Assembly (NCBI GenBank): GCA_963737065.1
Contig: CAVTRC010000001.1
Coordinates: 128,001 to 192,000, forward strand
Length of the DNA: 64,000 bases
Direction: 5' to 3'
From: Candidatus Eremiobacteria bacterium
GTDB taxonomy: Bacteria > Vulcanimicrobiota > Vulcanimicrobiia > Vulcanimicrobiales > Vulcanimicrobiaceae
Below are positions 14,700 through 50,927 of the stretch, one piece after another (the first letter of the stretch is position 1; every line of letters starts with the position of its first letter). A program made the translations under genes and the position numbers. The notes below the pieces were generated by a model. The model ran no database searches, had not been told where the DNA came from, and was given only the letters and a program-made list of their open reading frames with translations.

Positions 14700-14790
14700 T
14701 GGCGGAGAGGGTGAGATTCGAACTCACGGTACCCTCATCAGGTACGCCCGCTTTCGAGGCGGGTGCCTTCAACCACTCGACCACCTCTCC
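14700..14790 (-). tRNA. tRNA-Ser(CGA)
   Basis: GGAGAGG acceptor, CCCGC-CTCGAAA-GCGGG anticodon arm, long variable arm, CCA. Confidence 0.97.
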
Positions 14791-14817
14791 CCAATGTGTC
14801 GATTCGCGCGTCCGTAA

Positions 14818-15304
14818 CTACCCCGTTTGCGACGGGATACCTTCATCCTCGACGTTTTGACGCTTTTGCCGAAAGTACCGTTGCAACTGCGCTGCGGTTT
14901 CTCTTTCCAATACACCGGCGGTCACTTCCAGCCGGTGATTTGTTTTCGGATGAGCGCAGAATGTCGAACGCTCCGCCGTCCGCGCCGCCCTTCGGATCGC
15001 TCGCGCCGTAGACGACGCGTTTGATGCGCGCGGCGATCATTGCACCGGCACACATGACGCACGGTTCTTTCGTGACGTACAGCGTTGCATCCGATAAACG
15101 CCACACGCCGAGGCGTTGCGCCGCCTCGCGCAATAGAATCATCTCTGCATGCGCCGTTGCATCGGGACGCGACTCTTTTTCGTTTCTTGCTTCGAGAACG
15201 AGATCGCCGGAAACGAGCACCGCGCCGATCGGCACGTCACCTGCGTCCGCAGCTCGATCGGCAAGCTGCATCGCGCGGTGTATGTACGCTTCGTCTTCCG
15301 TCAT
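14818..15304 (-). CDS. tadA: tRNA adenosine(34) deaminase, one apparent extra base near 14950
   Basis: DVPIGAV, HAE and EPCVMC zinc motifs; canonical C-terminus NHRLEVTAGVLERETAAQLQRYFRQKR lies in the shifted frame ending at TAG 14818. Confidence 0.92.
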
Positions 15305-15322
15305 TGCAGTTGTGAAATTACT

Positions 15323-15395
15323 CGCGCCCGAGATGACTCGAACATCCAACCTTCGCCTTCGGAGGGCGACGCTCTATCCATTGAGCTACGGGCGC
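15323..15395 (-). tRNA. tRNA-Arg(CCG)
   Basis: GCGCCCG/CGGGCGC acceptor, TCGCC-CTCCGAA-GGCGA anticodon arm; CCA not encoded. Confidence 0.95.
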
Positions 15396-15408
15396 AGGCT
15401 CCGCCCCG

Positions 15409-15636
15409 TTATTCCGGAGCGCTTCCCGATGCGGGAAGGTGTTTGAACAGGTCAAGCTTATGATCGACCAGCGAACGATAGAACTTCCGCACGCAGTCGG
15501 GGTGACCGAAGAAATACGTCCTCGCGTACGCGAGGTCGTCGCCGGAGCTATCCGGCACGTAGTGCGAGATCTCGATCTCTTCCATCTGGTTCCGGTCGAC
15601 CGGATGGGGACAGAAATCGCACGGGATCGTGGACAT
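15409..15636 (-). CDS. Small putative zinc-binding protein (CxxC...HxxC)
   Basis: MSTIPCDFC...GHPDC; GAGG RBS upstream. Confidence 0.65.
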   Translation of the reverse strand: MSTIPCDFCPHPVDRNQMEEIEISHYVPDSSGDDLAYARTYFFGHPDCVRKFYRSLVDHKLDLFKHLPASGSAPE

Positions 15637-15690
15637 TGAAGCACCTCTAGAACGGGAACGGCCGTCCGTCGGACGGCCGCACCTCAAGAC

Positions 15691-15765
15691 TGGTGACTCG
15701 GGTAGGATTTGAACCTACGACCAAGGGCTTATGAGTCCCCTGCTCTACCACTGAGCTACCGAGCC
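15691..15765 (-). tRNA. tRNA with CAT anticodon (elongator Met or Ile2; not initiator)
   Basis: GGCTCGG acceptor with paired first base, CTCATAA loop, CCA. Confidence 0.93.
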
Positions 15766-15848: not shown

Positions 15849-17405
15849 ATGGGCAAGCACGGTTGTGCGCGGTTTTTTGTCGCGCTCGCTATGTCTACGA
15901 GTGCGGTGACTTTTGTATGTTCGACGGCAGCGCGCGCGCCGGCCGAGGACGGCACCGAACTTTTGCAGCGACATCGTCAGTACGTCGGATGGCAGTTCGG
16001 CGATCCGGCGTTCCACTTCGTACGCGCGACGTGGCTCGAAGACGAAACCACGAACGGCAAAACGCAAACAGCCGCTCATGTCACGACGATCCGCGCGAAC
16101 GTGGTTTTCCGGACGACGGCCGTCGATGCGAAAACGCAGTTTGAGACCGATTCCGGATACACCGGAAACATATTCTGGACGACAAACCAGAACGGCTTCA
16201 TCCGGCCGATTATAGGCGACGCGGAAAAAGCGATGATCGCGCGCGAGGTTGTGTTGAACGAAGCAGCAACCTCGCTGCCCGGCACGTTCAAACGCACCGA
16301 AGCGGTGGACGGCGTCGAGACGTCGGTCGTGCACGTTCAACCCGAGAACGCAGACGGGATCGATCTCTACATCGACCCGTCGAGCGGCGCGTACAAGCGC
16401 GTAGTGATCGATCCCGACGGCCCGTATCAAGCCGCGATCGACATCGTCTCGTACAAGCCGGTACGGGACGGGAAAAGAGTCATCAGCGCATACAAGACGC
16501 GGCAAGGCCGATATACGTTTCGCCTCGACACGATAGAGCTTCCGCAGTCGATCGATGCGCAAGCGTTTGCACCGCCCAAGCAGACTGCTACGTGGCACTT
16601 TGATCCGTCGCATGCTGCCGTCCCGCTAACACTGAACTGGTATCGTCAGCGACGTATCTATTTCACCGCAAAGATAAACGGCGTCGACGGCAAGTTCATC
16701 CTCGATACGGGCGCCGGTGCCGGCATCGTCTTTACGAAGAGCTTCGCCGACAAACTGAAGCTCAAGCAACTGAAAAGCTCGCAGGCGCTTGGAGTGGGCG
16801 GTTCCGTCATCACACAATCGGCGCTCGTCGACTCGATCACCATCGGCGGAAACACCCTCTCGCACGTCGCGGCCTCCTTTCAGGACACCGCGCTCGACGC
16901 CGATGGACTGATGGGATTCGATTTGTTCGCAGGAGTCGTCGCACACGTCGATCTCGACAAACTCGCCCTTACGCTCTACGACCCGTCCACCGACATTTCA
17001 ACGCTCGCGCACGGCGTCAGTGCAACGGTCGATCTCGAAAACGGCATCCCCGCAGTCCCGATGAAGATGAACGGTCGCATCGACGTGAACGCGCAATTGG
17101 ACACCGGTAACCCGCTCTTCATGTTGTTCCCTCGCGGGCTTATCTATAGCGACCACGTGAGGATGTATCGGCGCGCCGCCTTCGTCCGCGGCATTGCCGG
17201 ATACGAACTCGACGAATGCGGAACGATCGATTCGCTTACGATGGGACCGATCGATTATACGGGCGTCGCTGCGTGCGCGAGCCCCTCCTACACCGGACAT
17301 AACATTTTGGTGGGTTTAGATTTCATTCGTCACTTCAATCTATGGTTCGACTATCCGCGGTCGGCAATGGTGTTCGAACCTCGCGCCAGCGTACCGGACC
17401 CGTAA
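15849..17405 (+). CDS. Secreted protein with two retropepsin-like aspartyl protease domains
   Basis: Signal peptide; FILDTGA...DGLMGFDLF and AQLDTGN...ILVGLDFI. Confidence 0.85.
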   Translation: MGKHGCARFFVALAMSTSAVTFVCSTAARAPAEDGTELLQRHRQYVGWQFGDPAFHFVRATWLEDETTNGKTQTAAHVTTIRANVVFRTTAVDAKTQFETDSGYTGNIFWTTNQNGFIRPIIGDAEKAMIAREVVLNEAATSLPGTFKRTEAVDGVETSVVHVQPENADGIDLYIDPSSGAYKRVVIDPDGPYQAAIDIVSYKPVRDGKRVISAYKTRQGRYTFRLDTIELPQSIDAQAFAPPKQTATWHFDPSHAAVPLTLNWYRQRRIYFTAKINGVDGKFILDTGAGAGIVFTKSFADKLKLKQLKSSQALGVGGSVITQSALVDSITIGGNTLSHVAASFQDTALDADGLMGFDLFAGVVAHVDLDKLALTLYDPSTDISTLAHGVSATVDLENGIPAVPMKMNGRIDVNAQLDTGNPLFMLFPRGLIYSDHVRMYRRAAFVRGIAGYELDECGTIDSLTMGPIDYTGVAACASPSYTGHNILVGLDFIRHFNLWFDYPRSAMVFEPRASVPDP

Positions 17406-19391: not shown

Positions 19392-19468
19392 TGGCGCGGT
19401 CGGAGGGACTCGAACCCCCAACCTACAAGTTCGTAGCCTGTTGCTCTATCCAATTGAGCTACGACCGC
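19392..19468 (-). tRNA. tRNA-Arg(ACG)
   Basis: GCGGTCG acceptor, ACAGG-CTACGAA-CTTGT anticodon arm, CCA. Confidence 0.97.
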
Positions 19469-19562
19469 GTACGTCTTACCTGGTAAGCGACCACCGTAGA
19501 TACGGGGTCGTATTTTCATTCCCTGCTTTCACGGATGCGGCGCGCGCCGGAACCCGGCGATC

Positions 19563-19652
19563 CGGAGAGAGAGGGATTCGAACCCTCGATACGACTTTAC
19601 ATCGTATAACGGTTTAGCAAACCGCCGCCTTCAGCCGCTCGGCCATCTCTCC
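19563..19652 (-). tRNA. tRNA-Ser(GCT)
   Basis: GGAGAGA/TCTCTCC acceptor, GCGGT-TTGCTAA-ACCGT anticodon arm, long variable arm; CCA not encoded. Confidence 0.96.
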
Positions 19653-40228: not shown

Positions 40229-40732
40229 CTACTTTGCTGCGAGTCGTCGCTCGACGTACGGAACGAGGCCACCCGAGTCAATTAATTCACGCATAAACGG
40301 CGGGAACTCGGCGGACTTGTACTCGGTTCCTTTCGTCGTGTTGCGAATGACGCCGCTCGCCGGTTCGACTTCGACGGCGTCGCCGTCTTCTATGCCATCG
40401 ACTGCCTCCGCCGATTCGAAGATCGGCAAGCCGATGTTCAGCGCGTTGCGGTAAAAGATCCGCGCGAAACTTTTCGCGATCACCGCCGACGTGCCGGAGC
40501 CCTTGATCGCGATCGGCGCGACTTCGCGGCTCGAGCCGCAGCCGAAATTCGTGCCGGCGACGATGATGTCGCCCGATTTCATTTTCGCCGTGTACTGCGG
40601 ATCGAGTCCCTCGAGTGCATGTTTGCCGAGTTCGACCGGATCGATGATGTTGCAGTACTTGCCGGGGATAATGACGTCGGTGTCGACGTTCTTTCCGTAC
40701 TTGTGTGCGGTTCCGTTCAGTTTGCTTTCCAT
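40229..40732 (-). CDS. leuD: 3-isopropylmalate dehydratase / homoaconitase small subunit (type 2)
   Basis: NVDTDVIIP, NFGCGSSRE, SFARIFYRN. Confidence 0.88.
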   Translation of the reverse strand: MESKLNGTAHKYGKNVDTDVIIPGKYCNIIDPVELGKHALEGLDPQYTAKMKSGDIIVAGTNFGCGSSREVAPIAIKGSGTSAVIAKSFARIFYRNALNIGLPIFESAEAVDGIEDGDAVEVEPASGVIRNTTKGTEYKSAEFPPFMRELIDSGGLVPYVERRLAAK

Positions 40733-42016
40733 CTATACTCCCGCCAGTTCTAAGACGCGGGGATCGGTGATTTTTCCGGTTAGTGCGGATACCGCGCACG
40801 TAGCGGGCGAGGCGAGATACACTTCGGACTTCGGCGAACCCATGCGGCCGACATAGTTACGATTCGTCGTCGAGATCGCACGTTCTCCATCGCCGAGCGT
40901 GCCCATATGTCCGCCGAAACAGGCGCCGCATCCGGGCGTATTCACGGCGCAACCCGCTCCCGCGAGCGTCGTAAGCACGCCTTCGGACGCCGCCTGCATC
41001 CAGACTTCTTGCGATCCGGGATTGACGATCACGCGAACGTTCGACGCGATCTTCTTTCCGTCGAGAATCTTCGCCACGATCCGCAGATCATCGATGTAGC
41101 CGTTCGTGCACGACCCGATGAAGACTTGATCCACTTCGATCTTGTCGCGCGCGACCTCGGAGATCGGATGCACGTTGTCCGGCGTGTGCGGGCAGGCGAC
41201 TTGCGGTTCGAGCTGGTCGACGTCGATTTCAATCGTACGCTCGTAGTTCGCGTCCGCGTCTGCGCGCTCGACGATGAACGGACGATCCGTACGCTCCTTC
41301 ACGAATGCAACGGCTTTTTCGTCGGCGTGGAAGATGCCGTTCTTCGCGCCGGCTTCGATTGCCATGTTCGCCATCGTGAAGCGGCCGGTAACCGAAAGAT
41401 TGTCGACCGTCGTGCCGTGATATTCGATCGCGCGATAGGTCGCGCCGTCGATCCCCAGTTCGCCGACCGTTCGCAACATGAGATCTTTCGCGTACACCAT
41501 GCGGCCGAGCTCGCCGTTGTAGACGATCTTGATCGTCCCCGGGACTTTCAACCACACTTCGCCGAGGACGAACGCTGCCGCGATATCCGTCGATCCCATG
41601 CCGGTCGCAAACGCGCCGAGCGCGCCGTACGTACAGGTGTGCGAATCGCCGCCGACGATAACCTCACCGGGTGCGACGAGTCCTTGTTGCGGCAAAACGA
41701 CGTGCTCGATCCCGCCGCGCCCGACATCGAAGAAATGCGTGATCTTCTGCTCGGCGGCGAAGTCTTTCATCAGCTTTGCGAGCTTTGCGGATTGCGCGTC
41801 TTTCGCCGGAACGAAATGATCCTCGACGAGCGCAATCTTGTCGCGATCGAAGACGGTCGAAGCGCCTTTCATGTTCCGCATAACGCCGATTGCAACGGCG
41901 GCGGAAAGTTCGTTTGCGAGCACCAAGTCGACGTTCGCGTTGATAATTTGGCCGGGCTCAATGCGATCGAGACCGGCGTGGCGGGCGAGTATTTTTTCGG
42001 TGAGTGTCATCCCCAT
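40733..42016 (-). CDS. leuC: 3-isopropylmalate dehydratase / homoaconitase large subunit (type 2)
   Basis: TLTEKIL, DSHTCTYGA, IGSCTNG, GCGACFG, TTNRNYVGRMG. Confidence 0.88.
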   Translation of the reverse strand: MGMTLTEKILARHAGLDRIEPGQIINANVDLVLANELSAAVAIGVMRNMKGASTVFDRDKIALVEDHFVPAKDAQSAKLAKLMKDFAAEQKITHFFDVGRGGIEHVVLPQQGLVAPGEVIVGGDSHTCTYGALGAFATGMGSTDIAAAFVLGEVWLKVPGTIKIVYNGELGRMVYAKDLMLRTVGELGIDGATYRAIEYHGTTVDNLSVTGRFTMANMAIEAGAKNGIFHADEKAVAFVKERTDRPFIVERADADANYERTIEIDVDQLEPQVACPHTPDNVHPISEVARDKIEVDQVFIGSCTNGYIDDLRIVAKILDGKKIASNVRVIVNPGSQEVWMQAASEGVLTTLAGAGCAVNTPGCGACFGGHMGTLGDGERAISTTNRNYVGRMGSPKSEVYLASPATCAVSALTGKITDPRVLELAGV

Positions 42017-42057
42017 AGGCAAGCGGTTCTTGGCGCATCGTGCAGAATCCCGGGCTC

Positions 42058-42480
42058 ATGATTCTCAGCTCGGCCGCCGAGCGCAAGGCACTTCTGGAGC
42101 GCAGTTCAACAGTTGCCGTAGTCGGTGCGTCCGCAAAACCGGACCGCCCGAGCCACGGCGTGTTTGCATACCTTCGCGCGCATGGCTACGATGTGACGCC
42201 TATCGCGCCGAAACTTGACGAGCTTCACGGGGTCAAGGCATACCCGAATCTCACCGCGTACGCCGCGGAGCGCGGTGCGCCGGACGTGGTTGACGTCTTT
42301 CGTAAACCCTCGGAGGTACTTCCGATCGTCGACGAAGCGGTCGCGGTCGGCGCCAAAGCGATTTGGTTTCAGCTCGGCGTGATCAACGAGGAAGCAATCA
42401 ACCGCGCAGATAGGGCCGGTTTAGCGGTCGTTGTCGACAAGTGTATGAAGGTGGAGCACCGTGATCGCGTATCCGGATGA
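42058..42480 (+). CDS. CoA-binding protein (YccU-like)
   Basis: VAVVGASAKPDRPS, DVVDVFR, IWFQLG, VVDKC. Confidence 0.92.
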   Translation: MILSSAAERKALLERSSTVAVVGASAKPDRPSHGVFAYLRAHGYDVTPIAPKLDELHGVKAYPNLTAYAAERGAPDVVDVFRKPSEVLPIVDEAVAVGAKAIWFQLGVINEEAINRADRAGLAVVVDKCMKVEHRDRVSG

Positions 42481-43612
42481 ATCGCGGCGGCTCGATGAAA
42501 CGTTGTTACGGTACATCGAGCGCTGGCGCAGCACGGGAGAAGCGATGACGGACGGCGAGTTCAACGATCTCGCCCTCACGATCTTTGCGTACCAGCTTCA
42601 GTACAATACGCCCTACGCGCAGTATTGCGCTTCGTTGGATGTTACGCGCGAAAACTTCCCGTCGCAATGGGAAGAAATTCCGTCGCTGCCGAGCGCCGCG
42701 TTCAAAGAAACGCGACTCGCGACATTCGATCCGCTCACCGCGGCAGCCGTCTTCGAAACAAGCGGTACGACGCGCGGCGAAGGCGGCCGGCATTATATGG
42801 AGACGACCGCAATCTACGACGCATCGTTGTTAGCAACGTTCAGCGCGTTCATGCTGTCGGATCATGCGTCGCTGCGATACCTCAACCTCGTGCCGAACCC
42901 CGCCGAGAATCCGCACTCGTCGCTCGGTTACATGATGGCGAAGGTGTCGCAGCAATTCGGTGACGGACGAACGGGCTGGTTCATCAGCAACGGCGTGCTG
43001 GACGTCGAATCACTCATCGCGGAACTGCAGACGGCCGCCGAGCGCGATCGTCCTGTGTGCATCGCAACGACGTCCTTCGCGCTCGTACATCTGCTCGACG
43101 CGCTGGAACAACGGGCGCGCTACTTCGCGCTGCCCGCCGGCTCGCGTATCATGGAAACCGGCGGCTTCAAGGGACGCTCGCGCTACGTCGATCGTTTCGA
43201 ACTGTACCGAACGACCGCGGAACGGTTGGGCACGAGGCTTGAAACGATCGTTTCGGAATACGGTATGACCGAACTCAGTTCGCAATACTACGACGACGTC
43301 TTGGTGCGGCGCGCGGGTGCGCATGGGACGGAACCCCGATATAAGACGCCTCCGCCCTGGATGCGCGCCCGCGTTGTCGGCGCGGATGGAAAGACCTTAC
43401 CGCATGGGACGGCCGGCGCGCTGGTTCACGTCGATCTCGCGAACCGTTCGTCGTGTATCGCAATCCAAACCGAAGATGTCGGTGTCGAATTCGCGCCGTC
43501 GATCTACGGGCAACGCATCGTCCTGATGGGACGCGACGCCGGCGCCTCGTTGCGCGGCTGTTCGCTCACCGCCGAGGATCTCGCCGTGCCCGATCACCGC
43601 ATCCTGCGATGA
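42461..43612 (+). CDS. LuxE-like acyl-protein synthetase (adenylate-forming)
   Basis: FAYQ...Y, FETSGTT P-loop, METGGFKG, SEYGMTELSSQ, DLAN..S..AIQTED, C-terminal RGCSL cysteine. Confidence 0.88.
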   Translation: MIAYPDESRRLDETLLRYIERWRSTGEAMTDGEFNDLALTIFAYQLQYNTPYAQYCASLDVTRENFPSQWEEIPSLPSAAFKETRLATFDPLTAAAVFETSGTTRGEGGRHYMETTAIYDASLLATFSAFMLSDHASLRYLNLVPNPAENPHSSLGYMMAKVSQQFGDGRTGWFISNGVLDVESLIAELQTAAERDRPVCIATTSFALVHLLDALEQRARYFALPAGSRIMETGGFKGRSRYVDRFELYRTTAERLGTRLETIVSEYGMTELSSQYYDDVLVRRAGAHGTEPRYKTPPPWMRARVVGADGKTLPHGTAGALVHVDLANRSSCIAIQTEDVGVEFAPSIYGQRIVLMGRDAGASLRGCSLTAEDLAVPDHRILR

Positions 43613-43718
43613 TGGGGCACCAATACACCTCCTGTGCGGTGCCTGATCACCGCATCCTGCGATGATGGGGCACGAATACACCTCCTGTGCGGTGCCCGAT
43701 CACCGCATCCTGCGATGA
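43586..43718. repeat. 2.5 tandem copies of a 53-bp unit containing a 35-nt imperfect palindrome
   Basis: Units start at 43586, 43639 and 43692: GTGCCCGATCACCGCA-TCC-TGCGATGATGGGGCAC plus (C/G)AATACACCTCCTGTGCG. Confidence 0.95.
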
Positions 43719-44935
43719 CCGCTCTTGCGGCGGTGCCGGCGCGGCGGATTATCGCGGCGGTTTCCGGCGCGGCGGCGCGGTGGGCCGACGCGGATTTTCC
43801 TCCGCGCGTGCGGGTTCTCGATTCGATCGTGAAGCGGACCGGATACTCGGTTCCCGTCGTCGAGTACGCGCTCGATCAGCTCTTCACCGCGGTGAACGCC
43901 GCTGACCTCGAAGCAACGATCGCGAACGAACTGGGATCGGTCGATATTCTGGACCGATTTGTCGAACGCACGTCGCGAAGCAAAGCGCGTGCGCGTCCGG
44001 TGGGATCGGTATGCGTCATTTCCAGCCGTACGACGATCGGCGTCGCGATCGTTCCGGCCGTCTTTGCGCTGTGCGCCAAATGCGACGTGCTCGTGAAGGA
44101 CCGCGAAGACGGCATCGTGCGCGGCTTTTTCACCACGCTGTGCGACGAGCTCGATGAGTTCGTAACCGCGGCTCGCGCCGGCGCGTGGCGCGGCGAGGAC
44201 CATGCGGTCGATCTCGCGCAGTTCGGCGTCGTCGTTGCGTTCGGCAGCGATTCGACGTTGGCGCGCATCGCGAAAAACGCGGCGCCGAGCGCGTTTATCG
44301 GCTACGGATCCAAGGCGACGATCGGGTACGCCGGCCGCGATGCGCTCTCCGATGAGGCGAACGTGAAGGCGATCGCTCAGTGCGCTGCGCGCGATCTCGT
44401 GCTCTACGAAAGCCAAGGTTGCCTGTCGTTGCATGCGCTCTTCGTAGAACACGGCGGTGCGGTAACGCCGCAGCGCTTCTGCACGCTCCTCGCCGAAGCG
44501 GTCGAACGCGCCGCGGTCGAATTTCCGCCGGGACCACGCGATGTCCGCGCCAGCGCGCGCATCGCACATGCACGCAAACTCGCCGCATTTCGCTCGGCGA
44601 CGGGCCGTGGCGCGGTTTTTTCAGACGAACGCGCAAGTTATCTCGCGGTCCTCGATCCTCCGCCGAGCGAGCCGCCGGCGTTTCTGCCGCGCGCGCTGTC
44701 GATACACACGGTGAATTCGCCGGATGATGCCGTCGCATACGTGCGCCGGCATGAACTTTCGCTTGAAGCCATCGCTGTTGCGGGCGTTCGCGATGATATC
44801 GTCGATGCGGCGCTGTCGCTCAGCGTCAATCGCATCACCGCATTCGGTGAACTGCAGCGTCCGCCGGCAAGCGGAAGCCACGGCGGACGCGCGCGCATCG
44901 CCGATTTCGTTCGCTGGGTCAGCTTCGAAACGTGA
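43715..44935 (+). CDS. LuxC-like acyl-CoA/acyl-protein reductase (ALDH fold)
   Basis: VVAFGSDSTL, GYGSK, ARDLVLYESQGCLS catalytic-Cys region, RITAFGELQRPP..SHGG. Confidence 0.85.
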   Translation: MTALAAVPARRIIAAVSGAAARWADADFPPRVRVLDSIVKRTGYSVPVVEYALDQLFTAVNAADLEATIANELGSVDILDRFVERTSRSKARARPVGSVCVISSRTTIGVAIVPAVFALCAKCDVLVKDREDGIVRGFFTTLCDELDEFVTAARAGAWRGEDHAVDLAQFGVVVAFGSDSTLARIAKNAAPSAFIGYGSKATIGYAGRDALSDEANVKAIAQCAARDLVLYESQGCLSLHALFVEHGGAVTPQRFCTLLAEAVERAAVEFPPGPRDVRASARIAHARKLAAFRSATGRGAVFSDERASYLAVLDPPPSEPPAFLPRALSIHTVNSPDDAVAYVRRHELSLEAIAVAGVRDDIVDAALSLSVNRITAFGELQRPPASGSHGGRARIADFVRWVSFET

Positions 44936-46215
44936 ACGACGAATTCGAAGCCGTGCGCGGGCCGATCCCCGGGCCGCGCACTACCGCGTTGCACGCGCAG
45001 CTCGCCGAATACGAATCGCAGAACGTCACGTATCTGAGCGATGAGTTCCCGGTTTTTTGGGAGACGGCATCGGGTTCGAGCGTGACGGACGTCGACGGCA
45101 ACCGCTATATCGATCTCACGTCGGCGTTCGGCGTTGCCAGCGTCGGTCATGCGAATCGGAGCGTGACCGCGGCCATCGCGCGGCAGGCCGCGACGCTCAT
45201 GCACGGCATGGGCGACGTGCATCCCACCGAAGTTCGTTCGCGTTTGCTCGAGCGGCTCGCGGGACTGCTTCCCACCGGACTGACCAAAACGTTTCTTGCG
45301 ACAACCGGATCCGAAGCGATCGAGGCGGCGTTGAAAACCGCGATCATGGCGAGCGGTAAGCATCGTTTCCTCGCGTATCGCGGCGCGTATCACGGGCTGT
45401 CGCTCGGTGCGCTCACCGTATGCGGGATCGACAAGTTCGTCGACCGCTTCCGCGGACTCGTTCCCGGCGTGACGACGCTGCTCCACTATCCCGACGCGCA
45501 ACGCATCACGCTCGATGAAGCAACCGCGCAACTCGAACGGGAAGCCGGAGATTGCAACGACATTGCGGCGCTCGTCGTCGAGCCGCTGCAAGGACGCGGC
45601 GGGTGCATCGTTCCGCCGGGCGGCTATCTTACAGCGCTTCGCCGCTTCTGCGACGAGCGCGGCATCATCATGATCGTCGACGAGATCTACACGGGGTTCG
45701 GCCGCACCGGCTGCTGGTTTGCGTGCGAAGCGGAAGCCGTCGTACCCGATATCGTCTGCATCGGGAAAGCGATGGGCGGAGGATTTCCGATCAGCGCGGC
45801 CGTTGGGCGGCCGGCGATTATGGACCGGTGGCCGCGTTCGTCCGGCGAAGCGCTGCACACGTCGACCTATTTAGGCAATCCGATGGGCTGTTCGGCCGCG
45901 CTCGCGACGATTGAGGAAGTGGAACGCGAGGATCTCCCGAAACGCGCGCGCGAGCTCGGCGACGTCGTCGGCTTGCAGCTCGAGCGGTTTCTGGCGCGCG
46001 AATCGGTCGTCGCGGTCCGCGGGCGCGGCATGATGTGGGGCGTCCAACTTCAGAGCGCCGAGGATGCGGGCCGCGTTGTGAAACGCGCGTTGGCGCGCGG
46101 TGTGATTCTTCTTCAATCGGGGCCGGCGGGCGACGTGCTGTCGATCACACCGCCGCTTGTTATCGATCGGCCCGTACTTTTACGTGCTCTCGACATCATC
46201 AACGAGGAACTGTGA
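44932..46215 (+). CDS. Class III PLP-dependent aminotransferase (GabT/ArgD-like)
   Basis: DVDGNRYIDL, TGSEAIE, AYHG, EPLQGRGG, DEIYTGFGRTG, GKAMGGG. Confidence 0.95.
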   Translation: MNDEFEAVRGPIPGPRTTALHAQLAEYESQNVTYLSDEFPVFWETASGSSVTDVDGNRYIDLTSAFGVASVGHANRSVTAAIARQAATLMHGMGDVHPTEVRSRLLERLAGLLPTGLTKTFLATTGSEAIEAALKTAIMASGKHRFLAYRGAYHGLSLGALTVCGIDKFVDRFRGLVPGVTTLLHYPDAQRITLDEATAQLEREAGDCNDIAALVVEPLQGRGGCIVPPGGYLTALRRFCDERGIIMIVDEIYTGFGRTGCWFACEAEAVVPDIVCIGKAMGGGFPISAAVGRPAIMDRWPRSSGEALHTSTYLGNPMGCSAALATIEEVEREDLPKRARELGDVVGLQLERFLARESVVAVRGRGMMWGVQLQSAEDAGRVVKRALARGVILLQSGPAGDVLSITPPLVIDRPVLLRALDIINEEL

Positions 46216-47246
46216 AAACATATCGCGTTGGCATCAGCGGCGCCGGCTTCGGCGTAAAAGCACATCTTCCGGCGCTGCTTGCGCATCCGCGCTTCGATGT
46301 CGTGGCCGTTGCTTCACCATCATCGGCGCAGGCCGTTGCCAAGGAACGAAACATTCCGCATGCATTCTCGAGCGCTGCTGAAATGGTCGATGGCTGCGAA
46401 CTGGACGCAGTGGTCGTCGCGTCGCCGCCGTTCGCGCATCGCGACGATGTGCTGGCGGCGCTCGACGTGCGCAAGCACGTATTGTGCGAAAAACCGTTTG
46501 CGCTCAACGTCGAGGAGGCTGAAGAAATGCTCGCGGCGTCGCTCAATGCGCAGAGCGCCTGCGGCGTCGCGCACGAGTTTCGTTTCGTACCGCAGCGTAT
46601 GGCGATCAAGCAACTCGTCGAGAATGGGCACTTGACGCCGCTTCGCGAGATCGAGATCACGCAACTCGGCACATTCTTACGATGCGACGGCACGCGGTCA
46701 CGCGGCTGGTGGTTCGAACGCCAACGCGGCGGCGGCGTTGCCGGTGCGTTGATGTCGCATGTGATCGATAGCGCGAACTGGACGATCGGACGGCCGCCGA
46801 AGTCCGTCACCGGTCTGCTCCGTACGGCGAACGCGCAGCGTACCGATGCAGCCGGCATCTTCACGAGCACCTCAGACGACGGCGCCTTCGCGTTACTCGA
46901 TTACGGCGACGGGTTGATCGGACGGCTGTCGGTGGACGCCGCTGTTGCGGTCGAATCGTTCACGCTCGCCGTACACGCCGAGAACCGCACGGCGGTTGCG
47001 AGCGGCCAAACGATCGTTGATATGACGCTGTTCTCTATCGATGATGAAGAGACGAACGAACTGGAATGCAAGCCGTCGCCGTATGCGAAGTTCAGCAGCA
47101 TCAATGCCAACGTTCCGCTGCTGATGGAACTGTACGACGAATGGATCAAGCAGATCGAAACGGGCGCCAGCGCGCTGCCGAGCTTTGAGGACGCCTTGGA
47201 AACACAACGCGTGCTGGCGGCGATCGGCTATACCGCGGCATCCTAG
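46212..47246 (+). CDS. Gfo/Idh/MocA family oxidoreductase
   Basis: GAGFG Rossmann loop, KHVLCEKPFA, GGG....SHVID; GTGA overlap with the aminotransferase. Confidence 0.93.
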   Translation: MKTYRVGISGAGFGVKAHLPALLAHPRFDVVAVASPSSAQAVAKERNIPHAFSSAAEMVDGCELDAVVVASPPFAHRDDVLAALDVRKHVLCEKPFALNVEEAEEMLAASLNAQSACGVAHEFRFVPQRMAIKQLVENGHLTPLREIEITQLGTFLRCDGTRSRGWWFERQRGGGVAGALMSHVIDSANWTIGRPPKSVTGLLRTANAQRTDAAGIFTSTSDDGAFALLDYGDGLIGRLSVDAAVAVESFTLAVHAENRTAVASGQTIVDMTLFSIDDEETNELECKPSPYAKFSSINANVPLLMELYDEWIKQIETGASALPSFEDALETQRVLAAIGYTAAS

Positions 47247-47286: not shown

Positions 47287-48555
47287 CTATGTGAGCCGTT
47301 CGCTGAGCGGCGTCCGTAATTCGTGCCAAAACAGGCCGAGCGCCATGACCGTTGCGCGCCGTTGGATCGCATCGCGATCGCCTAAAAAGGTATACGAACG
47401 CGCGGTCACGCGCTGCGCATCCGCGATGCCGAACCACACGAGCCCTACCGGCTTGTCGTCTGTACCACCGGCCGGACCGGCGACGCCGGTCGTCGACATG
47501 CCATACGTTGTCCCGAGCCGCATGCGAACGCCGCGCGCCATTTCGATCGCGGTTTGCTCGCTGACCGCGCCGTAACGAGCGAGCGTCTCTTGCGAAACGT
47601 TCACTTCACCGACTTTCACGGAATTGTCGTACGCGACGACGCCGCCCCAAAACGTTTCCGATGACCCGGGAAGACGCGTAAACGCTGAGGCGATGCGACC
47701 GCCTGTGCACGATTCAGCGGTAGCAACCGTTGCGCCGCGATTGCGCAGCAACTCCGCAACTGCCGATTCGATCGTCGCCTCGCCAGTACCGAACACGAAG
47801 CCTTGCAGACGCTCTTCGATCCGTTGCTGCAGCGGTGCAATCATCGTTTCAGCTTCGGCCGCTGACGTGGCTTTCACCATGATCTTCACGTCGCATATGC
47901 CTTCGTGCGCGAGCACGGCGATCTTCGGGTTCTCGCCGGCGCGAAAGAGGTCGCCGATGCGATGATCGATCTCGGACTCGCCGATGTTGATCGTGTGTAC
48001 GACGCGCGTAAAAATCGCGGCGCGCAGCTCGTACCGTTCGCGCAAAAAGGGGATGAGGTGCTCGGTCAACATCGGTTGCATCTCGCGCGGTACGCCGGGC
48101 ATCGATGCAACGAACTTTCCCGACGAAGCGAACGCAACGAACCCAGGAGCCGTGCCTCGAGGATTTTTCAGCACAAAACTCCCGCGAGGCACGTCGGCTT
48201 GTTTGCGATTGTTCTCGCGCATCTCCCGCCCGCTCTTTGCAAAGAAATCTTTCATCTGGCGCAGCGAACGTTCGTCCGGCACGGTGTCGACGCCGAGCGC
48301 ATCGCACACTGCCTCTTTCGTCAAATCATCCACGGTCGGTCCCAGTCCGCCCGTGGTGATGACGCCGTCGACGCGACCCAGCGCCGCCCGCAACGCGTTT
48401 GCGATACGAACGCGATTATCACCAACCGCATGCGTGCCCAATACATCGATTCCGGCGTTCGCGCAGTGACGCGCGACAAACGCGGTGTTCGTATCCGCCA
48501 ACTGCCCCAGCAGCAGCTCGGTGCCGACCGCGACGAGTTCAACCGCGAGCGACAC
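47287..48555 (-). CDS. cinA: CinA (molybdopterin-binding domain + PncC NMN deamidase)
   Basis: VGTELLLG...DTN, TGGLGPTVDDLT, PGVPREM, AESCTGG, TGVAGPAG. Confidence 0.95.
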   Translation of the reverse strand: MSLAVELVAVGTELLLGQLADTNTAFVARHCANAGIDVLGTHAVGDNRVRIANALRAALGRVDGVITTGGLGPTVDDLTKEAVCDALGVDTVPDERSLRQMKDFFAKSGREMRENNRKQADVPRGSFVLKNPRGTAPGFVAFASSGKFVASMPGVPREMQPMLTEHLIPFLRERYELRAAIFTRVVHTINIGESEIDHRIGDLFRAGENPKIAVLAHEGICDVKIMVKATSAAEAETMIAPLQQRIEERLQGFVFGTGEATIESAVAELLRNRGATVATAESCTGGRIASAFTRLPGSSETFWGGVVAYDNSVKVGEVNVSQETLARYGAVSEQTAIEMARGVRMRLGTTYGMSTTGVAGPAGGTDDKPVGLVWFGIADAQRVTARSYTFLGDRDAIQRRATVMALGLFWHELRTPLSERLT

Positions 48556-49150
48556 GCGGGCGCAATCCTTCCAATTCGTCCTCAAACCATTGGGGATACG
48601 AGAACGTCACCGCAACGTCGAAGCCGTCCGCCGCGTCGATCATGGCCTTGCGGCGAACGCCGCTGTTTTCGGCTCCGGGATGGGCGCGTTTTATTCTCGT
48701 TTTTTGCGTCCCCAAACATTCGATGAAACGGGCGAACGTCGCATCCATCGCCGCCTGAAGGCGCGACTTCAGTCGCTTGCCGACGCGCGGCGCAAGCCCC
48801 GTCGTCGAGATTGCGACACGCACCGGCCCCGCTTTTGCGATGGCCGCCATCGCGACGAATCCGTGCTGCGGCTGATCGATGCAGCACAACAAGAACCGGT
48901 GCCGGTCGGCGAGCTTGCGCAACCGAGCGGACAGCTCTTCATTCTGCGGGGTGGAGATCACAAAAAATGCGTCCACTACATCGTCATCGCGCAACGCATC
49001 CGGCTTGGTGATCCAGCGGACGACCGCACCCGATTCGCGCAGCGACGTTTCTTTTTCGATCGCTTCGCGGTCGTCGCGCTCGCCGATCACGACGCAACGA
49101 CGCCCCACGAGATTGAGGCTCACCGGAAAGAAAACGCCTTGGTCCAGCAT
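48539..49150 (-). CDS. SirC/CysG-N (precorrin-2 dehydrogenase)-like protein with degenerate NAD-binding loop
   Basis: FFPVSLNLVGRRCVVIG, D.P...F, GPVRVAISTTGLAP. Confidence 0.8.
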   Translation of the reverse strand: MLDQGVFFPVSLNLVGRRCVVIGERDDREAIEKETSLRESGAVVRWITKPDALRDDDVVDAFFVISTPQNEELSARLRKLADRHRFLLCCIDQPQHGFVAMAAIAKAGPVRVAISTTGLAPRVGKRLKSRLQAAMDATFARFIECLGTQKTRIKRAHPGAENSGVRRKAMIDAADGFDVAVTFSYPQWFEDELEGLRPRVARG

Positions 49151-49152
49151 AT

Positions 49153-50010
49153 TCAAAAATCCACCGGGCGGAGGTAGAACTCGTTGATGGCGGTGTTCGT
49201 GAGCATGGCGGTCGTCGGTAGATGGCGTTTCCAATGCGTGGAGTCCACGCGCCGACGAACGATGGCGACGTCGCGCTCCTCGAAGCCGCGTTCGACGAGT
49301 TGCGCGTCGCTGTAGCCGAGAAGCATCTGCGCGAGAATCGCATCCGCTTGCGCGTACGTGATGCCGAGATCGCCCTCGTCGGTTTGATTCGCTTCCAGAT
49401 CCGCACTCGGCGCTTTTTCGATCAGCGATTCTGGAACACCGAGGTAACGCGCCAGATCCCATACCTGCGTTTTAAAAAGATCGCCGAGCGGATTCACCGG
49501 CGGCGTGTCGTCGGCATGCCAGGTGAAATACCCTAAGAGCCGTTCGGTTTTATTGCCGGTTCCGATCGGGAGTGCGTCGAGCTTCGCCGACTGATCGAAG
49601 AGGACGAGCATACGCGTGCGGGCCATGACGTTTCCGCGCCGCCGCGCGTCAGCGTCCGGCTCAAATTGCAAATATCCATCGACCGCTCCGGTAATTTCGA
49701 TTGTCCGGCAATGAATGCCGAGCGCATCGACGACGAGCTGCGCGTCGGAAAGGCTCGCGGAACTCGACGTACGGTACGGCATCCGAAACGCGTGCACGTT
49801 ATCCGGCCCGAGCGCGCGCGCGCAGAGAAACGCCGTGACGGCCGAATCGATTCCGCCGGAGAGACCGACGACCGCACCATGGATCTTGCGACGCGCGATC
49901 AATTCGTCGTGCAGAAACGCAACAAGCCAACGCGTTGCCAGTTCGCCGTTGATCCGCGGACCGTCCAGAACGCCGTCCAATGTCGCGCGCACTTGTACGA
50001 GCGGCTTCAT
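49153..50010 (-). CDS. nadE: NAD+ synthetase (synthetase subunit)
   Basis: GLSGGIDS, GNVMARTRM, GNKTE..LGYFT, PLGDLFKTQV, PSADL. Confidence 0.96.
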   Translation of the reverse strand: MKPLVQVRATLDGVLDGPRINGELATRWLVAFLHDELIARRKIHGAVVGLSGGIDSAVTAFLCARALGPDNVHAFRMPYRTSSSASLSDAQLVVDALGIHCRTIEITGAVDGYLQFEPDADARRRGNVMARTRMLVLFDQSAKLDALPIGTGNKTERLLGYFTWHADDTPPVNPLGDLFKTQVWDLARYLGVPESLIEKAPSADLEANQTDEGDLGITYAQADAILAQMLLGYSDAQLVERGFEERDVAIVRRRVDSTHWKRHLPTTAMLTNTAINEFYLRPVDF

Positions 50011-50927
50011 GCGCGTCCTTTCGGCAGCGGTAGCTCTTCATCGAGAATCAAATCGGGGAGCACCGCACTCAGATCGCCGAGCAGCGGAAGGCTCGCGCGC
50101 GCGAGGTCACCTTCACGCGGATCGATGAAACCGCGCACGACACATTCGCCGATGGCCGGAGCCTCGACTTGCATGCGTCCCCACGGATCGATCACCGACG
50201 ACGATCCCGTCATTCCTTTGCCGCCTTCGAAACCCGTTAGGCCGGCGTAGAGCACGTAGACGCCGTGTTCTGCCGCAATCGCGCGCAGCAGTTCGCGCCA
50301 GCGCGTAATCGACGTCAGCTCTCGGTCGCCGTCGATTCCGCGTCCGGGTGACGCCGACGGAACGATCAGGATGCGGGCGCCCTTCACCGCGGCGATCGTC
50401 GGCATGATGGCGTGCCACGAATCTTCGCAGATCAACATCGCGGCGCGGCCAAGGGACGTTTCGAACACCGAGAGCCGGCGGCCGCGCGAGAGAAAACGCT
50501 CCTCGTCGAAAACACCGTACGTCGGCAAAAACATCTTTCGGTGCACGTGCACGATCTCGTGCGTGTTGGCGCGCACGCGGATATAGAGCGAGCTATTGTA
50601 GTACGTCCCGCCGTCGTTTTCGTAGAACCCGCAGCAGAGCTCGACCGGCGTATCGCCCGCGCCGTCGTGCCACGCGCGCGCCAAGTCGGCGGCGAAGCGC
50701 GACGCGGGAAGTGCCAGATCGTACACCGCTCCTTCCAAGAAGTATCCGGTCGTCGCGGCTTCGGGAAGGACGACGATATCAGGTGAATCGCCGTTGCTCA
50801 GCAGCTCCGCGAACGTCTGGGCAATGTTCGCGAGATTTTCCGTGTAACGGCCTTTCACCGGCTGCACTTGTACGATGGCGACGTCGCCCGTACGCGGCGT
50901 GCCCCCGACGTTAACCGGCGGTTCCAC
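50007..50927 (-). CDS. Nitrilase-family C-N hydrolase, probable glutaminase subunit of NadE
   Basis: E-K-C triad: LPEAA, HRKMFLPTYGVFDEER, LICED; ATGA-coupled to nadE. Confidence 0.9.
   Translation of the reverse strand: MEPPVNVGGTPRTGDVAIVQVQPVKGRYTENLANIAQTFAELLSNGDSPDIVVLPEAATTGYFLEGAVYDLALPASRFAADLARAWHDGAGDTPVELCCGFYENDGGTYYNSSLYIRVRANTHEIVHVHRKMFLPTYGVFDEERFLSRGRRLSVFETSLGRAAMLICEDSWHAIMPTIAAVKGARILIVPSASPGRGIDGDRELTSITRWRELLRAIAAEHGVYVLYAGLTGFEGGKGMTGSSSVIDPWGRMQVEAPAIGECVVRGFIDPREGDLARASLPLLGDLSAVLPDLILDEELPLPKGRA

Follow-up and report, generated by a model that had tools for sequence, protein, structure and literature searches.

A 64,000-nucleotide stretch of a Candidatus Eremiobacteria genome (assembly GCA_963737065.1, contig CAVTRC010000001.1, positions 128,001 to 192,000; hereafter the window) carries five genes arranged head to tail on the + strand at positions 42058-47246. 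From the open reading frame (ORF) list and translations, these encode a coenzyme A (CoA)-binding protein, a LuxE-like protein, a LuxC-like protein, a class III aminotransferase and a Gfo/Idh/MocA oxidoreductase. The LuxE-LuxC-aminotransferase trio is rated here as a real, conserved and uncharacterised pathway module, for which the chemical logic proposed in an earlier note on this DNA, written from the sequence alone, is probably right. The trio of this soil-type bacterium recurs, sometimes fused, in several other phyla, and probably makes an uncharacterised amine.

Organization of the operon

The five genes are:

42058..42480, + strand: CoA-binding protein (CoA_binding_2, YccU-like), 140 amino acids (aa) (Pfam PF13380, 142 bits; alignment; ORF list)
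42461..43612, + strand: LuxE-like acyl-protein synthetase, adenylate-forming, without C-terminal subdomain, 383 aa (Pfam PF04443, 53.5 bits; phmmer to 7xc6_E)
43715..44935, + strand: LuxC-like acyl-thioester reductase of the aldehyde dehydrogenase (ALDH) superfamily, 406 aa, Cys236 in QGCLS (Pfam PF05893, 135.4 bits; model)
44932..46215, + strand: class III pyridoxal 5′-phosphate (PLP) aminotransferase of the 'type A' clade, 427 aa, PLP Lys279 (Pfam PF00202, 330.4 bits; tree)
46212..47246, + strand: Gfo/Idh/MocA NAD(P)-dependent oxidoreductase, 344 aa (Pfam PF01408, PF22725, PF02894)

All five proteins exceeded the Pfam gathering scores, in agreement with the families assigned in the earlier note, and the motifs it had pointed out (TSGTT, RGCSL, QGCLS and the PLP lysine in CIGKAMGGG) were all found in the translations. 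Its description of the genes as a same-strand operon joined by overlaps was correct in most respects: the CoA-binding gene and luxE share 20 nucleotides (nt; 42461-42480), and GTGA junctions link luxC to the aminotransferase gene (44932-44935) and the latter to the Gfo gene (46212-46215). The single ATGA relay described between luxE and luxC, however, was not present, as 102 nt lie between these genes. A scan of the operon for promoters and terminators gave nothing above shuffled sequences.

Relationship to the LuxC-LuxE complex of luminous bacteria

The LuxE-like protein matched PF04443 over profile positions 38-385 of 391 (53.5 bits, cut-off 24.9), and the LuxC-like protein matched PF05893 over its full length (positions 3-401 of 401; 135.4 bits, cut-off 21). 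Both failed the NCBIfam equivalogs for the luminescence enzymes, with 49.5 bits against a cut-off of 550 for LuxE (NF052244) and 41.1 bits against 750 for LuxC (NF052251). Judged by these profiles, the window proteins are members of the two families and not orthologues of the luminescence enzymes. The LuxE-like family is large, with 2864 representative clusters at E <= 1e-3 and 749 at E <= 1e-30; non-luminous homologues of LuxE and LuxC are numerous, and carry only generic names in the source databases.

The sole solved relatives found by sequence were the two chains of the Photobacterium phosphoreum complex 7XC6 (E = 6e-10 for LuxE and 0.01 for LuxC). Residues K237, R358 and C367 of the LuxE-like protein align with K238, R355 and C364 of P. 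phosphoreum LuxE, and were invariant in 50/50 diverse homologues; the surrounding ASLRGCSLT matches the C-terminal motif TRxxKGCxLS. Similarly, Cys236 of the LuxC-like protein (QGCLS) aligns with catalytic Cys296 (QACFS) of P. phosphoreum LuxC (7xc6_A), and this cysteine was invariant (29/29). According to the available text of the paper on 7XC6, the Lys238/Arg355 pair of LuxE is catalytic, Cys364 is acylated, and the flexible C-terminal motif of LuxE ferries the acyl group to LuxC with no CoA; LuxE is compared there with PaaK1, and the C-terminal element P460-P488 of LuxC forms an oligomerisation domain (PMC9157457).

The LuxE-like protein was modelled with a mean predicted local distance difference test (pLDDT) score of 91.4, as an adenylate-forming N-domain without the C-terminal subdomain, followed by a flexible, Cys-bearing tail. 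This tail is disordered from about residue 361, around C367 (blocks over 361-383 scored 65, 48 and 37). The best fold matches were PaaK1 and PaaK2, with template-modelling (TM) scores of 0.62-0.64; 7xc6_E was absent among the 50 matches listed. For the LuxC-like model (pLDDT 93.1), the best fold was 7xc6_A (E = 5.5e-23, TM 0.85, root-mean-square deviation 3.0), and other ALDHs gave TM scores of 0.63-0.69. The last residue of the LuxC-like protein aligns with position 447 of the 477 in the 7xc6_A chain, so the oligomerisation element is lacking.

The family names could suggest that the pair supplies aldehyde to a luciferase encoded elsewhere in the genome, the more so as luxA-like genes have been reported outside the classical luminous families. 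In the available text of that report, however, such genes always sit with luxC, luxD and luxE, in a shared operon (10.1101/2023.02.27.530324). The earlier note had seen no luxA, luxB or luxD in the window, and indeed no luciferase-like monooxygenase or LuxD family was matched by Pfam among its 70 ORF translations; the same was true of 300 proteins from the related loci described below. Together with the equivalog scores, these results make a role in light emission extremely improbable.

Linkage of the genes in other genomes

A profile of 50 LuxE-like proteins was compared with one-genome-per-species contigs, which returned at least 598 confirmed loci, and the best 80 were examined. Genes in these loci were called with a codon log-likelihood caller, and LuxC and aminotransferase genes were detected with hidden Markov models built here. 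LuxC directly followed LuxE in 66/80 loci. It lay within 2.4 kb in two further loci and 7 kb off, on the other strand, in one; it was absent from 11, of which four were truncated by the end of the locus. In 62 loci, the presence of LuxC was confirmed by Pfam. A class III aminotransferase gene was present on the same strand in 34/80 loci, and touched the LuxE/LuxC pair in 33. The luxE-luxC-aminotransferase linkage noticed in the window thus exists elsewhere, in Eremiobacterota, Myxococcota, Spirochaetota, Omnitrophota and Binatota-type genomes. The full five-gene order recurred in 6/80 loci, all from the window's clade (L001, L002 and L005-L008, hereafter the six cassettes), and exceeds chance because of this repetition. 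Junctions in the related loci were mostly 4-nt overlaps in our own gene calls.

Pfam found no phosphopantetheine-binding domain among the 300 locus proteins (ORFs >= 80 codons) or in the five window proteins. With the LuxE cysteine invariant in 50/50 homologues, this fits the description of the system as carrier-free.

Several loci had additional neighbours. In Myxococcota (L036, L050), the whole aminotransferase-LuxE-LuxC trio follows rplQ. The trio also occurs in a cultured organism, Minicystis rosea DSM 24000 (L058). Genes for B12-binding radical S-adenosylmethionine (SAM) proteins adjoin the type A trio at L024:10456-11988, L028:5735-7285 and L064:15099-16688, two of them with DUF4070, and an Rrf2-sufBCDS cluster follows in L024, L028 and L033. 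A different arrangement was seen at L009:6807-10390 and L020:6730-10248, where an HD-domain phosphohydrolase, a LuxE-like protein and a class I/II aminotransferase are encoded in this order, with no adjacent LuxC.

The linked class III aminotransferase

Linked aminotransferases were aligned with Escherichia coli GabT, PatA, ArgD and BioA from the K-12 record. K279 of the window enzyme falls in an invariant column with the PLP lysine of all four. At the positions of E. coli GabT Arg141, Glu211 and Arg398, the window enzyme has Leu156, Arg222 and Ser404. Two types of linked enzyme were recognized:

Type A, 27 loci including the window: Leu/Met at GabT position 141; Arg at 211 (QGRGG); Ser, Thr, Ala, Gly or Val at 398
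Type B, 8 loci with the gene after luxC, in Binatia, Nitrospiria and others: Asp at GabT position 141; Glu at 211; Arg at 398

The type A census comprised the window, the six cassettes and 20 loci with the gene upstream of luxE. Leu/Met at 141 and Arg at 211 were each present in 26/27 sequences, the exception being cut by a contig end, and a residue other than Arg occupied position 398 in 27/27. The site held by Leu/Met in type A is Arg in GabT and ArgD, and Lys in PatA.

Trees of LuxE and of the aminotransferases were built with quick IQ-TREE runs, using support from the Shimodaira-Hasegawa-like approximate likelihood ratio test (SH-aLRT) only. Type A formed one clade (support 99), which included the window enzyme and the aminotransferase domain of the fusion protein P0257, and was separate from E. 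coli GabT, ArgD, PatA and BioA. Type B formed another (support 98), beside PatA. In the LuxE tree, 23/27 of the type-A-linked proteins fell in one 33-row region (support 91), along with two solo Eremiobacterota copies and eight LuxE from aminotransferase-free loci. Sub-clades in the LuxE tree agreed with those in the aminotransferase tree, which indicates that the module was inherited as a unit. The window LuxE and aminotransferase both branch within the Eremiobacterota-type group, and close homologues of the two occur in records named Candidatus Baltobacteraceae, Lustribacter, Cybelea, Vulcanimicrobiaceae and Eremiobacteraeota.

To interpret these positions, we take Arg141 to be the arginine that binds the distal carboxylate, and Glu211/Arg398 to be the gate for the α-carboxylate of the 2-oxo acid or amino acid, in GabT and ornithine aminotransferase. 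Nothing usable on the roles of the three GabT residues was found in the literature searched. On these presumed roles, type A enzymes would be without the distal-carboxylate site, and a carboxylate-binding Arg would have moved from the GabT-398 to the GabT-211 position. Since Leu/Met replaces the presumed distal-carboxylate arginine of GabT and ArgD, the pocket weakly favours an acid without a distal carboxylate, with an aliphatic or neutral chain, over Glu, aminoadipate or succinate. The dicarboxylate and amino-acid substrates named in the earlier note thus become less likely.

The same residues bear on a rival explanation, in which the operon serves an amino-acid or polyamine route. Here Glu, 2-aminoadipate, Asp, succinate or an omega-amino acid such as γ-aminobutyric acid (GABA) would be converted to ornithine, lysine, diaminobutyrate, GABA or a diamine, replacing the chemistry of ArgBCD, ProBA or LysZYJ. 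Putrescine and GABA aminotransferases are indeed the nearest solved relatives of the window enzyme (E ~1e-70 to 1e-60). The setting of some loci is also housekeeping in nature, after rpoA-rplQ (L036, L050) or beside suf genes (L024, L028, L033); the window operon adjoins leuCD-type genes; and in two distant loci (L039, L040) LuxE-LuxC lies behind homocitrate-synthase-like and aconitase genes. Against this, type A enzymes carry Leu/Met at the site that is Arg in GabT and ArgD and Lys in PatA. The aminotransferase reached no NCBIfam cut-off among the class III families (GabT, ArgD, PatA, BioA, EctB, LysJ and others; 25 listed), and no arg, pro or lys genes were found among the scanned ORFs of the 64-kb window. 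The six cassettes are without the leuCD neighbourhood and have a sulfhydrylase gene upstream instead, while L039 and L040 form a separate LuxE clade that has no aminotransferase. On balance, we consider an amino-acid or polyamine route to be quite unlikely.

Natural fusions and sister modules

Natural fusions were collected from long LuxE-containing representatives and from homologues of P0257, as predicted proteins from assemblies. They comprised seven LuxE-LuxC fusions, two fusions of a zinc-dependent alcohol dehydrogenase (Zn-ADH) to LuxE (P0128, P0146) plus one partial, two of a type A aminotransferase to LuxE (P0257, P0395), and 14 clusters of LuxC-aminotransferase fusions, of which P0441 was type A and 13 were type B.

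A sister LuxE clade (support 97) was formed by nine loci from Bacillota and Pseudomonadota (L023, L032, L035, L037, L038, L042, L044, L045, L047). In 8/9 of these, a short-chain dehydrogenase/reductase (SDR) gene follows LuxE-LuxC; the ninth is cut by the locus end. Strains of Neobacillus and Priestia are among the carriers of this arrangement. Neighbouring genes encode ThiM, ThiD, ThiE, ThiW, and a ThiY-like ATP-binding cassette (ABC) system or a xanthine/uracil-type permease, and a thiamine pyrophosphate (TPP) riboswitch heads the operon in 7/9. The thiamine-linked LuxE-LuxC-SDR module may salvage an oxidised pyrimidine acid to hydroxymethylpyrimidine (HMP) via the aldehyde. Nothing usable on a link between LuxE/LuxC and thiamine was found in the literature searched.

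From the SDR clade and the Zn-ADH fusions, it would therefore seem that the slot beside LuxE-LuxC is held by aldehyde-consuming enzymes. The shared pattern is, as read from gene content, a LuxE-LuxC core with one enzyme able to consume an aldehyde. More broadly, LuxE-LuxC pairs could be a general carrier- and CoA-free carboxylate reductase of two proteins, with the pathway set by one tailoring enzyme: a dedicated, mechanistically unusual class III aminotransferase would lead to a primary amine, possibly a housekeeping product such as a fatty amine or a diamine. Where the partner is an SDR and a TPP riboswitch heads the operon, an oxidised thiamine-pyrimidine acid would be returned to the alcohol HMP. 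We put forward this generalization tentatively, giving it somewhat less than an even chance.

Other LuxE-LuxC pairs had different partners. In Gemmatimonadota loci, an amidohydrolase gene lies upstream of LuxE-LuxC instead, and a conserved ORF of 85-90 aa precedes the amidohydrolase or LuxE in loci of this type (L011, L012, L026, L055, L073; for example L011:7684-7956). The small ORF had no Pfam match, so it is not an acyl carrier protein (ACP) by Pfam. At L039:1056-9610 and L040:2221-10396, the genes encode a radical SAM protein, a homocitrate/isopropylmalate-synthase-like protein, large and small aconitase subunits, a flavoprotein, LuxE and LuxC, in the same order in both. This gene content suggests that LuxE-LuxC in these two loci reduces the product of a 2-oxo-acid chain elongation.

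The position of the aminotransferase gene can also be read in the reverse sense. The aminotransferase would act first, making or epimerising an amino acid from a 2-oxo acid; LuxE/LuxC would then reduce the carboxylate to an amino aldehyde, which the Gfo enzyme would convert in this phylum to an amino alcohol. The commonest gene order is aminotransferase-LuxE-LuxC (20/26 type A loci), and two fusions link the aminotransferase to LuxE and not to LuxC. The Arg of type A at the GabT Glu211 site, without an acidic partner, would suit α-carboxylate substrates on the presumed roles given above, and class III-fold amino-acid racemases were among the Protein Data Bank (PDB) matches. Reaction order, however, is not given by gene order. 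LuxC, which forms the aldehyde, is joined to an aminotransferase in 14 fusions, one of them with type A, and the equivalent slot in the sister modules is occupied by an SDR or Zn-ADH, which are able to act only on the aldehyde. The reverse order is the main rival to activation, reduction and transamination, and we regard it as unlikely.

Proposed pathway

We favour, with modest confidence, a pathway in which two proteins would form a carboxylate reductase of the LuxE/LuxC type and work with an aminotransferase of their own, taking an acid through a Cys thioester and an aldehyde to a primary amine. From the conserved residues and the solved homologue, the LuxE-like protein would adenylate a carboxylic acid with ATP to give an acyl-AMP. 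The acyl group would be moved to Cys367 on the flexible C-terminal tail of LuxE itself, and the tail would hand it to Cys236 of LuxC, where the thioester would be reduced with NAD(P)H to a free aldehyde; both steps are modelled on the conserved residues. The class III PLP enzyme would then convert the aldehyde to a primary amine, as suggested by the linkage, the fusions and the analogy with SDR and Zn-ADH. The activate-reduce-transaminate line of the earlier note has, in its core, strong backing from comparison, through the linkage in 34/80 loci, the fusions and the SDR/Zn-ADH parallel; its inclusion of the CoA-binding and Gfo genes is not supported.

Several observations weigh against this proposal. 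A class III aminotransferase is missing from 46/80 LuxE loci, so the LuxE/LuxC pair does not always feed one. An orthologous luxE occurs solo after rpoA-rplQ in two related loci (L003, 8001-9098; L004, 5964-6932), and neither luxC nor an aminotransferase gene was found in the 9-17 kb around it. The best NCBIfam score of the window aminotransferase was 307.3 bits against a cut-off of 552, and without Arg at GabT position 398 it would therefore be an atypical class III enzyme. The class III fold includes racemases, lyases and mutases, and such entries were among the PDB and NCBIfam matches. The pocket argument, for its part, depends on the presumed roles of the GabT residues. The fusions of aminotransferase to LuxE fit equally an aminotransferase that acts before LuxE. 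Finally, the short LuxC without an oligomerisation element may imply a complex architecture differing from that of 7XC6.

The CoA-binding and Gfo/Idh/MocA genes

The CoA-binding gene was assigned the ATG at 42058, which is backed by an M-I-L start kept in 9/9 aligned homologues. The window protein is without about 20 C-terminal residues (ARFxGGLxTxGLNSGLIxSRR) that are common to 8/8 relatives (L001-L008). The CoA-binding gene has a partner in all eight other Eremiobacterota-type loci, a gene for O-acetylhomoserine sulfhydrylase that the window lacks. The sulfhydrylase gene (above the TIGR01326 cut-off) is coupled upstream of the CoA-binding gene in the six cassettes; in L003 and L004, the pair lies close to the solo luxE and on the opposite strand. 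The CoA-binding gene is thus linked to the sulfhydrylase gene no less closely than to luxE. A complex prediction for the LuxE-like protein (alignment A1) with the CoA-binding protein (A3) gave a score of 0.01, which carries no weight for or against binding. Nothing usable on the function of YccU/PF13380 was found in the literature searched.

The Gfo protein matched PF01408, PF22725 and PF02894 (86.6, 58.4 and 40.9 bits) and contains the EKP motif (CEKPF). It reached no NCBIfam cut-off, the best being iolG at 89 against 355; its closest matches were levoglucosan, inositol and anhydrofructose enzymes. By tblastn, the Gfo gene was found in 6/80 loci, always after the aminotransferase gene, and it was absent from 28/28 aminotransferase-linked loci outside the window's lineage. 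Because they are present only in Eremiobacterota-type loci, the CoA-binding and Gfo genes are, on this distribution, lineage-specific additions outside the conserved module.

An acid-to-alcohol pathway could nevertheless be envisaged in this lineage, with the Gfo enzyme as an aldehyde reductase, like the thiamine-linked SDR, and the aminotransferase serving an unrelated or side reaction. The sister LuxE-LuxC-SDR modules (8/9 loci) and the Zn-ADH-LuxE fusions provide precedents, and the Gfo gene, coupled by GTGA in the window, is kept in 7/7 cassettes including it. Its absence from all 28 linked loci beyond the lineage argues otherwise, as does the aminotransferase clade, which tracks LuxE/LuxC across phyla and is fused to them. 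Moreover, hydroxyl or keto groups of the sugar type are the usual targets of Gfo/Idh/MocA enzymes, in keeping with the closest matches of the window protein. Alcohol formation is accordingly held to be very unlikely.

The luxE/luxC junction

The sequence between luxE and luxC has the following features:

43586..43718, + strand: 53-bp tandem repeat, 2.5 copies, 96% matches (Tandem Repeats Finder score 252; pattern counts)
43609..43665, + strand: mini-ORF 1, 18 codons; begins in an overlap with the luxE stop and ends in one with the following ATG (direct sequence reading)
43662..43718, + strand: mini-ORF 2, 18 codons; its stop overlaps the luxC ATG at 43715 (direct sequence reading)

The repeat is made up of the 27-nt 3′ end of luxE, including ATGA, three times, and a 26-nt spacer twice. 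This produces a chain of ATGA at 43609, 43662 and 43715, and luxC begins at the third and not at the ATGA of the luxE stop (43609-43612). With the luxE 3′ end triplicated, luxC therefore begins 102 nt past the luxE stop. Within the window, the two parts of the repeat are confined to this site (3 and 2 copies, against 0 expected from shuffled sequence). As a possible luxC start, an in-frame GTG at 43634 was considered and rejected; it lies inside the repeat, and relatives begin at the Met equivalent to 43715.

L001, the closest relative, has a plain ATGA at the luxE/luxC junction and no repeat, and luxE and luxC overlap in 6/6 related cassettes in our own gene calls. Among the seven cassettes, the repeat is exclusive to this genome, where it gives LuxE seven extra residues (PDHRILR) relative to the others. 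The repeat could thus have arisen recently in this genome, or be an artefact of assembly. By its very layout, it preserves the chain of coupled starts. We propose that the operon would be read as one unit through translational coupling, here via the two repeat-born mini-ORFs.

Comparison with known systems

The families, the LuxE Lys/Arg pair, the Cys in GC(S)L and the LuxC Cys are shared with LuxC-LuxE of luminous bacteria (P. phosphoreum, 7XC6), whose mechanism needs no CoA or carrier protein according to the available text (PMC9157457). The window system differs in its ~18% identity to LuxC in the structural alignment, in scores far under the orthologue cut-offs, in the absence of luxA, luxB and luxD from the window, and in its shorter LuxC without the oligomerisation element. 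The aldehyde is proposed to reach an aminotransferase and not a luciferase, and the substrate is probably not myristate-specific.

The logic of reduction followed by transamination resembles the pathway to the tail of tambjamine BE-18591 in Streptomyces albus (TabQ, TabJ, TabE, TabA). There, in the text available, TabE, which groups with LuxC in a sequence network, and the omega-transaminase TabA make dodecylamine; the acyl group is carried on ACP, within a secondary-metabolite cluster with no LuxE-type synthetase (10.1101/2025.08.11.669332). The module described here, in contrast, has LuxE-like activation, no ACP detected, a housekeeping-like setting and a distribution over several phyla.

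Cascades of a carboxylic acid reductase (CAR) and an omega-transaminase likewise reduce an acid to an aldehyde via a thioester with ATP and NADPH, and then transaminate it to a primary amine. CAR of the nonribosomal peptide synthetase (NRPS)-like type is one polypeptide with a phosphopantetheinyl carrier domain, whereas Pfam identified no such domain in the window proteins; and the CAR-transaminase pairing is man-made, in engineered cascades, whereas the trio is a natural conserved operon with fusions. In ArgB/ArgC/ArgD, ProB/ProA and LysZ/LysY/LysJ, a carboxylate is also activated, reduced to a semialdehyde and transaminated by a class III enzyme. An amino-acid kinase phosphorylates the substrate in these pathways, and a semialdehyde dehydrogenase of the glyceraldehyde-3-phosphate dehydrogenase (GAPDH) type reduces it. 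Neither family is among the five proteins here, and the aminotransferase is without the arginine shared by ArgD and GabT.

Luciferase-free luxE and luxC also occur side by side, with no function given in the available text, in flagellin glycosylation islands of Aeromonas and Enterobacteriaceae (PMC7874193, PMC4875605). These islands differ in that they also contain genes for ACP, FabG, an AMP-ligase and glycosyltransferases, and their proposed role is the lipidation of a glycan; the available text of these sources mentions neither the class III aminotransferase trio nor its fusions (PMC7874193, PMC4875605). Searches for the trio brought up only work on luciferases, the flagellin islands and the tambjamine preprint. 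Neither the LuxE-LuxC-aminotransferase module nor the thiamine-linked variant was described in the literature searched, which left most subscription journals outside it; within that scope, the earlier statement that no characterised pathway has this gene set stands.

If the trio works as proposed, it would provide a function for the large unexplained LuxE/LuxC family outside luminous bacteria, and a naturally coupled, sometimes fused counterpart of the hand-built carboxylic acid reductase and transaminase cascades. The relocated active-site arginine would bear on substrate binding by class III enzymes. The amine might serve as a lipid head group, as a polyamine or as the precursor of a cofactor in little-studied phyla, of which Eremiobacterota is one. 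Independently of the trio, the thiamine-linked sister module gives a lead in vitamin salvage that can be tested directly.

Other features of the window

A leuCD-type pair (40229-42022) diverges from the operon on its upstream side, and cinA (47287-48585) converges on it from downstream. The leuCD-type pair was considered as part of the system and rejected, as it adjoins the operon in the window only and not in the six related cassettes. The remaining genes of the window are housekeeping (pyrG, prfA, prmC, nadE, glpX, tRNAs and others). An Rfam scan of the window identified six tRNAs only, and no riboswitch. Five of these tRNA genes form two small groups on the - strand (14703-15765 and 19395-19652), around a tadA-like deaminase gene (14843-15304). 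At 49153-50927 (- strand), NAD synthase and a glutaminase-type carbon-nitrogen hydrolase are encoded by two overlapping genes and not by one fused nadE. A 518-aa ORF at 15849-17405 contains a retropepsin-like aspartyl protease domain.

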